From an uncultured Halobacteriales archaeon (GTDB taxonomy: Archaea > Halobacteriota > Halobacteria > Halobacteriales > PXRE01), in NCBI GenBank assembly GCA_964435625.1, contig CAYTAG010000002.1, forward strand, positions 1 through 48,434: a DNA stretch of 48,434 nt, in the 5' to 3' direction. A program made the position numbers and the translations under genes. The notes under the pieces were generated by a model. That model did not search any database. It was not told the origin of the DNA and saw nothing but the letters and a program-made list of their open reading frames with translations. Below, piece after piece: positions 18,133 through 20,053 of the stretch (the first letter of the stretch is position 1; the number at the start of each line of letters is the position of its first letter).

Positions 18133-18666
18133 TCAGGCGTAAAGCTCCTGGACGCGTTCCCGTCCATCGATCGCTTCGATCCGTTCGATGACGGCCGACG
18201 GCAAGTGAGCCTTCCACTCCTCGTTTTCAGCCATGGCTTCACGAATCTGGGTCGCACTAATGTCCCGTTGTTTTGGTTTTGTGCGGACCCGACGGCCCTG
18301 GTCCCGGAGTCGGTCTACCTTCACCTCGTGCCAGTCTTCGAGTACGTACACGAAATGAACACACGACTTCGGCGCGTAGTAGTCCCAGAGTTCCGGCCTG
18401 TTGATCGGGAACGGGCAGATTTCGACCGGAACGTCAATCGTCGAGTCGTCGACCGCCTCCCGAACCATCCGTAATCGCTCGAAGTACCGGAACGGGTTGG
18501 CTTCCGGGCAGTGCCGTTCCGAGTCTGCCCGCTCTTTTTCAGTGTGTGACGGATCGCTGTTCGTGATCCCCACGATGAGACGGTCCGCTACGTCGGCCGC
18601 CCACTTCACGTATTCGAGGTGCCCGTCGTGGAACGGCTGAAATCGACCGTGGACGTGACCGATCAT
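18133..18666 (-). CDS. Cytidylyltransferase-like nucleotidyltransferase, archaeal NadM-type NMN adenylyltransferase-like
   Basis: 177 aa. GRFQPFHDGHLEY corresponds to the (H/T)xGH motif. The C-terminal ISATQIREAM....W..LPSAVIERIEAIDGRERV mirrors archaeal NMNAT (SGTEIR...W..LP..V...I..I.G.ERI). The ATG at 18666 is 1 nt from the stop of the upstream gene. Confidence 0.8.
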   Translation of the reverse strand: MIGHVHGRFQPFHDGHLEYVKWAADVADRLIVGITNSDPSHTEKERADSERHCPEANPFRYFERLRMVREAVDDSTIDVPVEICPFPINRPELWDYYAPKSCVHFVYVLEDWHEVKVDRLRDQGRRVRTKPKQRDISATQIREAMAENEEWKAHLPSAVIERIEAIDGRERVQELYA

Positions 18667-18667
18667 G

Positions 18668-20053
18668 TTACGACAGATCCTCTATATACTGCTCGACCTC
18701 GAGATTCCCGTCGACCGAAATCGGTGCGCTGGCCGATTCCGTGTATTCTCCGACGACTGCCGGATCGGCCGGAGAGAGACCCAACAAGTCCTCCTTGAGG
18801 TTTCGAATCACAGTCGCGCTGGCGACGACGGCGATCGGTCCGTTCGTCTCGACCGTCACGTCCGGAACGGTCCAGCGTTGGCTGACGTGGTCGGTGATCG
18901 TCTCGCTCAACATCGGGATCTTCCGAATGTGGAACGTCAAATCGTTCGTCTCGGCCGGTTTCTGCAGGTCTCGAATCCCCGGTCCGGAGATGTCCGAGGT
19001 GTATTTGATGTGTTTCGACGGGTCGAACGACTCCTCCGGTCCCGGACAGTACCGAGCGAGCGCCCCGGCTACCGGTCGATTGTCGGTGGACAGTTCATGG
19101 AGCGCCGAGTCTTTCAGTTTCTCGGCTGAATCATCGATGCCGACGGTGTACATCGCAAGTCCACCGATTGGTCGGTGGAGCAATACCTGATCCCCCGGAG
19201 TAATCTGTCGCTCGAAGGTTGGCGGATCGTGGGAGATGCTCGCCGTCGCCGTCGCGCCGAACAACCAGCCGTAACCATCGTGTTCGAGAACGACACCTGG
19301 AAGCACCGTGACGTCGTTGGGTAGCGCACTCCCATACCATTCGTTTACCTCCTCGGGAGTTACGTCGTTCCCGGTCGTGACGACGACGATCGGTCTGATC
19401 GTCCGGTCCTCGTAGGCGCCGGCCGAGTAACAATCGTTGAGCGCGTGAAACGACGCAATCGCCGCCTGACGACGGACGGGTAACTCCGGAAACGCGTGGA
19501 TGATATCGACGTTGGCTACCATGTGCCCCTCCCGTCGTGGACCGACCGGTTCGAAGTGTTCGAACCACTGTACCATGCTGCTCGCTTCCGGAAGTTGGAC
19601 CGAGTGGCCCTTTCCGATCGTCACCGATCCGATCTCCCCCAGTGACTCGTAGATGTCGCCGACAGTGTCGAGAAACTGCTGTTCGCTCCCCCCGATGTCC
19701 GCATTCGCAAGTGTCGCCGTCAACGTCCACACGTGGCGGTCGGACTGTGGCATTTCGGTGGGTTCGCCGTTGCCGGCCTCGGCTTTCGCGACCGTGCGTC
19801 GATACTCATCGGTCAGAGGGAAGATGCCGACGTCGCCGGCTTCACCCAGTTCAACCCCCACTTCTCGAAGCCGTTCCGAGAGCTTTCGTCGGGCAGGGTA
19901 AATGACGTCCTCTAACGATATCTTCCCGCCACAGCCGCAGATAGAGTTAACCGCCTCGACGTCACGTTTTTCCGCTCCCGGCCCTAGGTTTGTATCGTTT
20001 ATCATGAATATTTTATAGAGGTAAGCTTGTTCTAACACCTTATTTATTTCCAT
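18668..20053 (-). CDS. PurM-superfamily (AIR synthase-related) ATP-dependent enzyme, SelD (selenide, water dikinase)-like
   Basis: 461 aa. The N-terminal loop VNSICGCGGKISLEDV resembles the SelD loop GAGCGCKISPKVLE. The blocks GDVGI, ANVDIIHA, HALNDCYSAGA and YTSDISGPG line up by eye with the four Asp-containing SelD/PurM motifs. There is an insertion of about 100 aa after the first block. An alternative start is the ATG at 20005. Confidence 0.7.
   Translation of the reverse strand: MEINKVLEQAYLYKIFMINDTNLGPGAEKRDVEAVNSICGCGGKISLEDVIYPARRKLSERLREVGVELGEAGDVGIFPLTDEYRRTVAKAEAGNGEPTEMPQSDRHVWTLTATLANADIGGSEQQFLDTVGDIYESLGEIGSVTIGKGHSVQLPEASSMVQWFEHFEPVGPRREGHMVANVDIIHAFPELPVRRQAAIASFHALNDCYSAGAYEDRTIRPIVVVTTGNDVTPEEVNEWYGSALPNDVTVLPGVVLEHDGYGWLFGATATASISHDPPTFERQITPGDQVLLHRPIGGLAMYTVGIDDSAEKLKDSALHELSTDNRPVAGALARYCPGPEESFDPSKHIKYTSDISGPGIRDLQKPAETNDLTFHIRKIPMLSETITDHVSQRWTVPDVTVETNGPIAVVASATVIRNLKEDLLGLSPADPAVVGEYTESASAPISVDGNLEVEQYIEDLS

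Follow-up and report, generated by a model that had tools for sequence, protein, structure and literature searches.

The SelD-like superfamily, whose members resemble the selenophosphate synthetase SelD, is already known from computational work: it was described in Crenarchaeota, where synthesis of thiophosphate was proposed as its function (Li et al. 2014, BMC Genomics 15:908, PMC4210487), where its carriers are without selenium traits, and where a Cys-x-x-Lys loop in the N-terminal part was recognised as being specific, within the PurM superfamily, to SelD and the SelD-like proteins (PMC4210487). Some genuine selD genes are themselves orphans, being present without any known selenium trait (PMC5029168). 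Another described system of relevance is that of phosphinothricin tripeptide, in which PhpF, an enzyme of Pfam family PF01467, cytidylylates phosphonoformate in vitro (CTP + phosphonoformate; bioRxiv 10.1101/2025.05.01.651723; PMC6697681), and in which PhpG carries the NCBIfam name CMP-5'-phosphonoformate--3-phosphoglycerate phosphonoformyl transferase. In the current work these systems are compared with a locus present on a stretch of 48,434 nucleotides (nt) from an uncultured Halobacteriales archaeon (GenBank assembly GCA_964435625.1, contig CAYTAG010000002.1; the whole of this stretch is named “the window”), in which a gene for a SelD-like protein is followed on the minus strand by a gene for a PF01467 nucleotidyltransferase (NT).

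The reading that is tentatively preferred here, by analogy with the systems described above and with a probability that falls somewhat short of even, is that the SelD-like protein may act as an ATP-dependent chalcogenide dikinase and that the NT may be a PhpF-like enzyme which joins the resulting thio- or selenophosphate to a nucleoside triphosphate (NTP).

Results

Conservation of the gene pair in Halobacteriales

A preliminary description of the locus, made from the letters of the window, had placed two open reading frames (ORFs) of 461 and 177 amino acids (aa) next to each other, and both were recovered at these positions on the minus strand, as was their junction, which reads ...CTGTCG TAA C ATG ATC..., the stop codon of the SelD-like gene (TAA, 18670-18668) being separated by a single nucleotide (18667) from the start codon of the NT gene (ATG, 18666-18664). 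The SelD-like ORF likely starts at M17 (20005), giving a protein of 445 aa like the Halorussus homologue. Among the homologous loci, the spacing between both genes extends from a 4-nt overlap to a distance of ~170 nt.

The co-occurrence of the pair in other genomes, proposed at that stage as a check, was borne out, as the NT gene adjoins or lies near the SelD-like gene in 16/16 loci (the window and 15 others, from Halorussus, Halobaculum, Natronomonas, Halorientalis and uncultured haloarchaea), the orthologous NTs at these loci being 47-80% identical, while the same NT family is found behind genuine SelD in bacteria (see below). Haladaptatus (L016) provides a seventeenth case of the pair. The pair has been kept in six genera or more and in three neighbourhoods that differ from each other, and at the DNA level it is the only part conserved between the window and a Halorussus plasmid (L001), with 76% identity over 1.8 kb. 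The two genes are linked in function, and their adjacency is no accident.

The neighbourhoods differ in their gene content. A four-gene operon with overlapping stops and starts, encoding an acyl-CoA dehydrogenase (ACAD)-like protein, an ApgM-like protein of the alkaline phosphatase family, the SelD-like protein and the NT, is present in 11 of the 13 loci for which upstream DNA is available; loci with this operon are L002, L003, L004, L006, L008, L010-L015 and L101 (for example L101:4342-8970). The best matches of the operon ACAD are acryloyl-CoA reductase and prolyl-PCP dehydrogenase, both being far under their cut-offs, and ACAD, MaoC and ECH genes are found among the neighbours of the pair. 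The window and the Halorussus plasmid share another gene set, consisting of a methionine adenosyltransferase (MAT), a glycosyltransferase of family 2 (GT2), a methyltransferase, an adenylate kinase (ADK), an HprK/ScmC-like protein, the pair itself, a DHH/DHHA2 protein, a MATE transporter and an MtaD-like amidohydrolase. The gene order in Haladaptatus is: a 653-aa protein of no known family, ADK, the SelD-like protein, the NT, GNAT, a second ADK-like protein and an MFS transporter. ADK-family genes flank the pair in the window, in L001 and, twice, in L016 (7847-8485 and 11577-12191). At yet another locus (L005:3269-8294), the SelD-like gene directly follows a tyrosine-integrase-like gene, the NT gene being located two genes away on the opposite strand with a methyltransferase gene between, an arrangement which suggests that the pair also travels on small mobile elements.

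Placement of the SelD-like protein within its superfamily

The SelD-like protein has no Pfam match, and both described families that were considered as its identity are ruled out. SelD proper is represented by models TIGR00476 and NF002098, on the former of which the protein scores 18.2 bits versus a cut-off of 125, and the crenarchaeal SelD-like family by model NF038049 (‘SelD-related putative sulfur metabolism protein’), on which it scores 188.3 bits in two stretches (E 1.8e-55) versus a cut-off of 250, genuine members of the latter family scoring 353-649 bits. An exhaustive profile search of 1.8 billion representatives placed the haloarchaeal clade at 362 bits or above and genuine SelD at 47 bits or below, with a middle tier (231-90 bits) made up of the genuine NF038049 proteins of Crenarchaeota and of a third group of ~500 aa. 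In a neighbour-joining tree built on Kimura distances with 100 bootstraps, the haloarchaeal clade was monophyletic (100/100) and the three SelD-like groups stood jointly apart from SelD (100/100).

The SelD-like protein represents a third, Halobacteriales-only clade of the SelD-like superfamily. The label of an orphan SelD-like enzyme, under which the protein had initially been filed, is replaced by membership of a superfamily already described computationally in Crenarchaeota, within which it forms a separate clade; its standing as a SelD-type member of the PurM superfamily is retained from the structural and profile matches (see below), whereas its identity as SelD proper is not retained from the scoring against hidden Markov models (HMMs) and the tree that had been suggested as a check, the clade being its own and apart from SelD. 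The haloarchaeal family is very rare, as 49 proteins were found among 5.8 billion clusters and nine loci among 185,579 species-representative genomes, all of them Halobacteriales. Its occurrences include Halobaculum megaplasmids and a Halorussus plasmid, where the protein is annotated as ‘hypothetical protein’, and the annotation of homologues in PGAP and PLSDB consists only of ‘hypothetical protein’ and ‘alkaline phosphatase family protein’.

The crenarchaeal family NF038049 is the best HMM match of the haloarchaeal clade and shares with it the C-G-C-x-x-K loop, an insertion with the motif (G/A)K(G/A)HS, H348 and the Asp ligands. The identity between the clades is nevertheless only ~23%, the loop reads CGCxGK in haloarchaea and CGC[SAG][VI]K in Crenarchaeota, and R217, R220, D324 and E402 are invariant in the haloarchaeal clade specifically, the hosts being halophiles in one case and hyperthermophiles in the other. 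The partners also differ, as the haloarchaeal proteins are associated with the NT (and with ApgM-like and ACAD proteins), whereas the crenarchaeal ones are associated with SirA/TusA-like and Prx-like proteins, with adenosine 5'-phosphosulfate (APS) reductase or with a fused acylphosphatase domain. In the window cluster and in L001-L016 no SirA/TusA-like protein, Prx/DsrE-like protein or APS reductase was found, and the SelD-like protein is without an acylphosphatase domain.

The remaining clade of the superfamily (L098:4015-5526; P0084-P0115) consists of proteins of ~500 aa which have the loop CGC[GS][VI]K and the GKGHS insertion and which score under the NF038049 cut-off. In the one genomic context seen for this clade (L098), the gene is accompanied by an EamA transporter and a 495-aa protein of no known family and by no NT; pairing with an NT is therefore not a property of the whole superfamily.

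Fold and active site of the SelD-like protein

The Cys/Lys loop, which had been recognised earlier as close to the catalytic loop of SelD, is located at residues 34-49 (VNSICGCGGKISLEDV), where C39, G40, C41 and K44 do not vary among 22 aligned homologues. The pattern C-G-C-x-x-K is present in nearly all full-length homologues and occurs with the same spacing in the crenarchaeal and third-clade relatives, SelD having C-x-x-K; the loop, the lack of conservation of which had been named as an argument against a SelD-like enzyme, is conserved. The extra Gly that was initially proposed to distinguish it from the SelD loop is not needed, as C41-G-G-K44 aligns without a gap to the Cys/Sec-x-x-Lys of SelD (Sec being selenocysteine), C39 being an additional upstream Cys. 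This second Cys, placed two residues upstream (C-G-C), differs from the arrangement in SelD (C-x-x-C or C-G-C-K).

When the profile of the family was aligned with that of genuine SelD (hhalign probability 99.25%, E 5.5e-20), D183 (NVDIIHAFP) fell on the SelD motif TvDFF, D207 (ALNDCY) on ALSDxYAMG and D354 (TSDISGPG) on TDVTGFG, as did H/N203 on the position of Asn87 in E. coli and TVETNGP on the SelD motif DPQTSGG. Of the four Asp-bearing blocks that had been listed for the protein, three are in this way confirmed by alignment, while the first (GDVGI, D82) is identified by motif and spacing alone.

The insertion, previously estimated at about 100 aa, is indeed present (70-100 aa, ~residues 93-160), separating Asp block 1 from block 2, and is no peculiarity of this protein, being common to the three SelD-like clades. 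It contains the motif G-K148-G-H150-S, whose K148 and H150 recur without exception in the 55 SelD-like sequences and have no counterpart in SelD. Taken together with a C-terminal tail, the insertion makes the SelD-like protein ~100 residues longer than SelD, the identity between both being ~19%.

A model generated with AlphaFold2 from 22 homologues has a mean pLDDT of 89.3, with values <50 for residues 1-26 and with a well-folded insertion. When this model was compared with the Protein Data Bank (PDB) by Foldseek, ranks 1-11 were all SelD (E 1e-16 to 5e-14, target-normalised TM 0.55-0.69), followed by ThiL and HypE, while SelD was the sole family found when the PDB was searched with the sequence profile of the family. 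The SelD-like protein thus has in common with SelD the PurM-type two-domain fold, the Cys-x-x-Lys loop, three Asp ligands, the Asn87-equivalent position and the T-x-G-G motif at the C-terminus, as well as the operon position which SelD occupies beside the NT family in bacteria. The resemblance to SelD is real at the level of fold and active site. With 49 homologues, 38 invariant positions and a confident fold, the protein is also real and not decaying.

The nucleotidyltransferase

The NT had initially been described as a NadM-type adenylyltransferase, of which the motifs GRFQPFHDGH and ISATQIR and the membership of PF01467 hold, whereas PhpF fits better as a relative than an NMNAT that serves the synthesis of NAD. 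Its scores on two NMNAT models (TIGR01527 and NF002243), 87.0 bits versus a cut-off of 181.2 and 93.4 versus 127, are under the cut-offs, as are those of the haloarchaeal and bacterial members of its family. Within the motifs H13-D-G-H16 and I-S-A-T-Q-I-R142, the residues H13, H16 and R142 are invariant in the family alignment. The archaeal NadM proteins (MJ0541/MTH150, PDB 1f9a and 1ej2) can be aligned with the NT over its full length, are of similar size and share the motifs GRFQPFHxGH and (S/A)xT(E/Q)(I/V)R, yet the NT family has as its hallmark a 12-aa insertion after the first strand-helix unit with an invariant R51, and its acceptor side is remodelled, TNxD (T35/N36/D38) being present in place of GSAQ and PFP, W112 and K116 being invariant. 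Furthermore, its genomic partner is SelD or a SelD-like protein and not a set of NAD genes.

Counting at least 313 proteins, the NT family exceeds the SelD-like family in size, and its bacterial members are 44-49% identical to the NT of the window and have the same 12-aa insertion. Judging from its sequence, the NT is better described as a PhpF-like PF01467 enzyme, predicted to nucleotidylate a small phosphate or phosphonate, than as an NMNAT of NAD synthesis.

Genuine SelD beside the same NT family in bacteria

A scan of metagenomes with the NT alignment retrieved >503 relatives, of which the closest 80 loci, not being a random sample, were examined. For 55 of these the upstream DNA could be read, and SelD was found directly upstream of the NT in 45, a haloarchaeal SelD-like protein in eight and neither in two. 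The downstream DNA could be read for 42 loci, 33 of which have an ApgM-like gene within 5 kb of the NT gene; the other nine comprise seven of the haloarchaeal type, in which the ApgM-like gene precedes the pair (the DNA of L021 starts with the SelD-like gene, what lies upstream being unread), and two (L026 and L027) which show none.

In a metagenome-assembled genome (MAG) of Dehalococcoidia the NT gene has on one side the gene for a genuine SelD, which scores 361 bits on TIGR00476, and on the other that for an ApgM/PhpG-like protein, and the same trio of SelD, NT and ApgM/PhpG-like protein is present on a JGI contig. The bacterial SelD partners, three of which were sampled in the metagenomes, score 341-371 bits on TIGR00476 (cut-off 125), the sampled ones having the loop C-x-G-C-A-A-K. 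The ApgM-like partners score 134-144 bits on the PhpG model versus a cut-off of 545. The operon of SelD, PhpF-like NT and ApgM-like gene (L017:8929-11914; L030-L097, for example L055:6960-10779) is abundant in soil metagenomes besides being present in the Dehalococcoidia MAG. In ~20 of the bacterial loci, a gene for a ~290-aa cupredoxin-like protein is placed between the NT and ApgM-like genes, and two long high-GC contigs from soil metagenomes (L055 and L084) have housekeeping flanks with an ABC1/UbiB kinase, CtaA and PAC2.

Genuine SelD and the SelD-like protein hence share the slot beside the same NT and ApgM-like families, which is the strongest available argument, on the basis of gene order, that the SelD-like protein would make a SelD-type product. 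The arrangement also recalls PhpF and PhpG, as a NadM-like NT of PF01467 is located in related loci beside an ApgM-like enzyme of the alkaline phosphatase superfamily and as the proposed logic, in which a small phosphate analogue would be nucleotidylated and then transferred, is alike. It differs from PhpF and PhpG in that phosphoenolpyruvate mutase and phosphonate genes are absent, in that the upstream enzyme is SelD or SelD-like and does not belong to a phosphonoformate pathway, in that the ApgM-like partner is far under the PhpG cut-off, and in that the window cluster is without an ApgM-like gene. A search of the available literature retrieved nothing relevant on SelD or selenophosphate together with a PhpF-like NT or with a partner of the phosphoglycerate mutase type.

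Gene content of the low-GC island

The window has a haloarchaeal look, with acidic proteins and flanks of ~69% GC, and the pair is located within an island of lower GC content (Table 1), the right edge of which abuts the 3' end of a tRNA-Thr gene. A search of this 3' end for an att-like repeat that would define an integrative element found none, no integrase was found on the island, and the fragment of an IS630-like helix-turn-helix (HTH) protein is the sole trace of a mobile element there. The window sequence has no PLSDB entry, PADLOC matched none of the cluster proteins and consequently gives no support for a known defence system, and a sigma-70 promoter scan of the window was uninformative, since the host is an archaeon.

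In the vicinity of the SelD-like gene, no gene of the Sec, selenouridine, YqeB/C or Sen kind can be seen, and in this respect the locus also differs from those of SelD. Rfam and ARAGORN, run across the window, found no tRNA-Sec and no Rfam family besides tRNA-Thr, and a Pfam/NCBIfam scan confined to 19 ORFs of the island, and thus not extending to the flanks of high GC content (~1-9 kb and 35-48 kb), found no match to selA/selB, ybbB/selU, yqeB/yqeC or senA/senB.

Table 1 Positions of the features discussed in the text, with the evidence on which each assignment is based
Feature	Position	Strand	Evidence or remark
Low-GC island	~9.0-35.2 kb (~26 kb)		GC profile; 51-63% GC vs ~69-71% in the flanks
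654-aa protein, function not assigned	9382-11346	+	Zn-ribbon-like CxxC...CxxC near residues 493-522
MATE efflux transporter	11732-13159	+	Pfam MatE
Archaeal-type MAT paralogue	16739-17965	+	PF01941 E 1e-85; NF003362 379 bits vs cut-off 481
PF01467 NT, NadM/NMNAT-like fold, PhpF-like subfamily	18133-18666	-	177 aa; Pfam E 2.5e-15
Stop/start junction TAA-C-ATG, 1-nt spacer	18664-18670	-	Sequence read
SelD-like PurM-superfamily protein	18668-20053	-	461 aa; 445 aa if the start is M17 (20005)
Insertion with G-K148-G-H150-S	19574-19777	-	Present in 55 sequences of three SelD-like clades, absent from SelD
Cys/Lys loop codons C39-G-C41-G-G-K44	19922-19939	-	C41...K44 corresponds to SelD Cys/Sec-x-x-Lys
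DHH/DHHA2 protein, family-II inorganic pyrophosphatase-like	20365-21315	+	Pfam DHH + DHHA2; divergent neighbour
HprK/ScmC-like P-loop protein, putative kinase	21796-22707	-	Weak Hpr_kinase_C and ScmC/HprK-related matches
ADK paralogue	22690-23478	+	ADK + ADK_lid; NF011103 222 bits vs cut-off 294
Class I S-adenosylmethionine (SAM) methyltransferase	23881-24510	+	Weak TehB/ArsM/MduS-like matches
GT2 (GT-A) glycosyltransferase-like, weakly GpgS-like	24552-25700	+	Pfam GT2 E 2e-5; NF010496 35 bits
MtaD/DadD-like amidohydrolase, possible S-adenosylhomocysteine (SAH)/methylthioadenosine (MTA)/5'-deoxyadenosine deaminase	32478-33755	-	Amidohydro_1; NCBIfam matches under cut-offs
IS630-like HTH transposase fragment	34129-34926		
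tRNA-Thr(UGU)	35187-35260	-	ARAGORN + Rfam; right edge of island

Several of the neighbouring genes have counterparts at other loci of the pair. The DHH/DHHA2 protein, the architecture of which is present although its score on NF003877 is 153.5 bits versus a cut-off of 283, is encoded by a gene that also adjoins the pair on the Halorussus plasmid L001. This plasmid furthermore encodes orthologues of the HprK/ScmC-like protein (66% identical, matching PF27840 ScmC), the methyltransferase (69%), the GT2-like protein (72%), the MAT paralogue (73%) and the MtaD/DadD-like amidohydrolase (62%), a methyltransferase gene also being present beside the pair in L005. Genes for exporters occur elsewhere as MATE in L001 and MFS in L016. 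The ADK ORF overlaps the end of the ScmC-like gene and probably has an internal start near residue 49-56, its N-terminal extension of ~50 aa probably being untranslated because the ADK domain begins at residue 56-60.

The MAT, the MtaD/DadD-like amidohydrolase and the methyltransferase of the island resemble a self-contained set for the supply of SAM and the removal of its by-products, and of these the MAT and the amidohydrolase are also present on the Halorussus plasmid. A minus-strand block (25925-31163) encodes a shikimate-dehydrogenase-like protein, a GNAT protein, a 329-aa protein of no known family, and an ABC-2 permease with its ATPase; a GNAT gene also adjoins the pair in Haladaptatus. 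The window cluster in addition contains sugar-type TIM-barrel and Gfo/Idh/MocA genes.

The 654-aa protein has no Pfam, NCBIfam or PADLOC match and just seven homologues in 5.8 billion clusters. It was considered as an obligatory third component, three loci (the window, L001 and L016) having its gene close to the pair, yet it occurs without the pair in L099 (beside an MFS gene) and L100, so that this role is not established.

Discussion

Proposed pathway

Considering the fold, the conserved catalytic residues, the placement of the clade and the gene associations, all of which are observed, a pathway can be put forward whose every chemical step is inferred. In this pathway, the SelD-like protein would convert ATP and HS- or HSe- into thio- or selenophosphate, AMP and Pi. 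The NT would then combine an NTP with the thio- or selenophosphate to form a nucleoside diphosphate (NDP) donor carrying sulfur or selenium at the beta position (NDP-beta-S/Se) and PPi, as do ATP sulfurylase or PhpF with their own substrates. Where it is present, the ApgM/PhpG-like enzyme would move the chalcogenophosphoryl group onto an acceptor, possibly a phosphoglycerate-like hydroxy acid. The version of the window, which is without such a transferase, would instead employ the helper and tailoring enzymes encoded around the pair: the adenylate kinase could recycle AMP or nucleoside monophosphates and the DHH/DHHA2 pyrophosphatase-like protein could pull the NT step forward, while the HprK/ScmC-like kinase and the methyltransferase (with the MAT and the SAH/MTA-deaminase-like hydrolase) could tailor a product that the MATE transporter would release. 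The helper genes (ADK paralogues and DHHA2 pyrophosphatase-like protein) fit chemistry in which AMP and PPi are formed. In these haloarchaea, sulfide would be a more likely substrate than selenide, as is suggested by the occurrence of the crenarchaeal sister family in organisms without selenium traits and by the replacement of SelD by the SelD-like protein in haloarchaea.

As an analogy only, in sulfate activation (ATP sulfurylase, APS kinase and pyrophosphatase) and in the O-methyl-phosphoramidate pathway of Campylobacter an inorganic oxyanion analogue is joined to a nucleotide by a nucleotidyltransferase of the HxxH type or another type, a pyrophosphatase and a P-loop kinase pull the reaction, and transfer of the group follows, sometimes with methylation; the window likewise has an NT, a pyrophosphatase-like protein, a P-loop kinase-like protein and a methyltransferase.

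A number of observations weigh against this proposal. To our knowledge, a nucleotide-linked thio- or selenophosphate is not a known natural metabolite. The SelD-like protein scores far under the cut-off of the SelD model and also under that of NF038049, its N-terminal 160 residues gave no hhalign alignment to SelD, and the D82 position is variable, being occupied by D or E in 17 homologues of the 22 in the alignment and by T, L or N in the other five. The insertion with K148 and H150 could, as far as its conservation in the sequences indicates, signal a different or additional substrate. The crenarchaeal and ~500-aa clades are not linked to an NT, and in the window cluster no ApgM-like or ACAD gene was found, which leaves the transfer step without a candidate there. 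With regard to the NT, its closest solved relatives are true NMNATs (the best PDB match being the MJ0541 NMNAT), and its likeness to PhpF comes from family membership and from the label ‘PhpF’ given by JGI to a 48%-identical relative (P0306), not from an authentic PhpF sequence. On the general apgM model the ApgM-like partners reach 210-220 bits, which is more than their 134-144 bits on the PhpG model. Finally, the role of SelD-like proteins is still called speculative in a 2026 review, the superfamily being known from computation alone.

Alternative explanations

The same dikinase activity could serve a different scheme, in which the NT (with the ApgM-like mutase, where there is one) turns a separate phospho-substrate, for instance a sugar phosphate or phosphoglycerate, into an activated NDP derivative, which is then attacked by thio- or selenophosphate to give a C-S or C-Se product that is later methylated or glycosylated and exported. 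Such a scheme would agree with the known users of selenophosphate, as in the reactions of SenB, SelA and SelU selenophosphate is the nucleophile that attacks an activated electrophile, SenB catalysing its displacement of UDP from UDP-GlcNAc. It would also suit the ApgM family, the members of which are typically phosphomutases that could supply a 1- or 2-phosphate for nucleotidylation, and PF01467, the enzymes of which often act on phospho-alcohols (the NCBIfam matches being for glycerol-3-phosphate, heptose-1-phosphate and pantetheine-phosphate), and the GT2, sugar-type TIM-barrel and Gfo/Idh/MocA genes of the window cluster point in the same direction. However, neither a SenB-like (GT-B) protein nor another evident enzyme forming C-S or C-Se bonds accompanies the pair in a conserved manner, the smallest unit that is conserved consists only of SelD or SelD-like protein and NT (with the ApgM-like protein), and the PhpF/PhpG precedent for this pair of families is the nucleotidylation of the small phosphate analogue itself, so that this scheme is considered unlikely. 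A selenosugar logic of the SenB type by homology was rejected, SenB being a GT-B enzyme and the glycosyltransferase of the window being a weak GT2/GT-A match present in only two loci. Somewhat less probable still is that the SelD-like protein is not a chalcogenide dikinase at all, and that, like ThiL, HypE, PurM or PurL, it phosphorylates or dehydrates an organic oxygen, possibly of the product of the NT or of an acyl or phospho intermediate held at K148/H150, its cysteines having a carrier or redox role. ThiL and HypE are close structural runners-up in Foldseek (E 5e-14 to 1e-12), the large insertion with its invariant Lys and His is absent from SelD, the acylphosphatase domain to which relatives from Thermoproteales are fused is suggestive of an acyl-phosphate intermediate, and the ACAD, MaoC and ECH neighbours hint at acyl-CoA chemistry; against this stand the Cys-x-x-Lys loop, which is specific to SelD and SelD-like proteins (PMC4210487) and is invariant here, the genuine SelD that fills the same operon slot in bacteria, and the ADK paralogues beside the pair, which fit an AMP-forming dikinase over an ADP-forming kinase.

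The module could also be devoted to detoxification or salvage of selenium, tellurium or sulfur, with selenide or sulfide being trapped as a phosphate, nucleotidylated, methylated by a TehB-like enzyme and exported via MATE or ABC-2. The weak TehB/ArsM/MduS-type matches of the neighbouring methyltransferase, the exporters in the window, L001 and L016, and the location of the cluster on a low-GC island or plasmids are compatible with such a function, but the methyltransferase matches represent generic class I similarity far under the cut-offs, the commoner cassette of ACAD, ApgM-like protein, SelD-like protein and NT is without a methyltransferase or exporter, and the process would be costly with at least three ATP equivalents per atom, which makes this explanation very improbable. 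Finally, the adjacency would be meaningless if the NT were simply the NMN adenylyltransferase of the cell, acting in NAD synthesis, and the SelD-like gene an unrelated neighbour or decaying paralogue. This explanation, which can draw on the NMNAT-type motifs and on archaeal NMNATs as the best solved matches, is strongly disfavoured and close to negligible, given that the NT is under both NMNAT cut-offs and has its family-specific 12-aa insertion and altered acceptor-side residues, that the pair is present in 16/16 loci from at least six genera and three neighbourhoods with the same NT family following SelD in bacteria, and that 38 invariant positions and a confident fold argue against decay of the SelD-like protein.

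Significance

In comparison with the computationally described superfamily, the elements that are undescribed in the searchable literature and in PGAP annotation are the Halobacteriales-only clade, its obligatory PhpF-like NT partner, and a module, shared by bacteria and archaea, with SelD and the SelD-like protein as interchangeable members. Returning to the preferred reading, in which a chalcogenophosphate would be made and then nucleotidylated, its extension to a general trait is more doubtful: SelD or a SelD-like protein with a PhpF-like NT, and usually with an ApgM/PhpG-like transferase, might constitute an undescribed chalcogen-utilisation trait across both domains, in which seleno- or thiophosphate would be nucleotidylated to NDP-beta-Se/S and transferred.

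The finding that one NT family partners both genuine SelD, on many soil and Dehalococcoidia contigs, and the haloarchaeal SelD-like protein provides a concrete and testable hypothesis for the SelD-like proteins, orphans since 2014, and for orphan selD genes. If this hypothesis is true, selenium utilisation would gain a new trait that has a counterpart for sulfur, and the SelD-like superfamily would gain its first functional anchor. The hypothesis would also imply a new route for selenium and sulfur via nucleotide-activated seleno- or thiophosphate, from which new small molecules of the phosphorothioate type are predicted, and the pathways of selenium and sulfur would be shown to share downstream enzymes.

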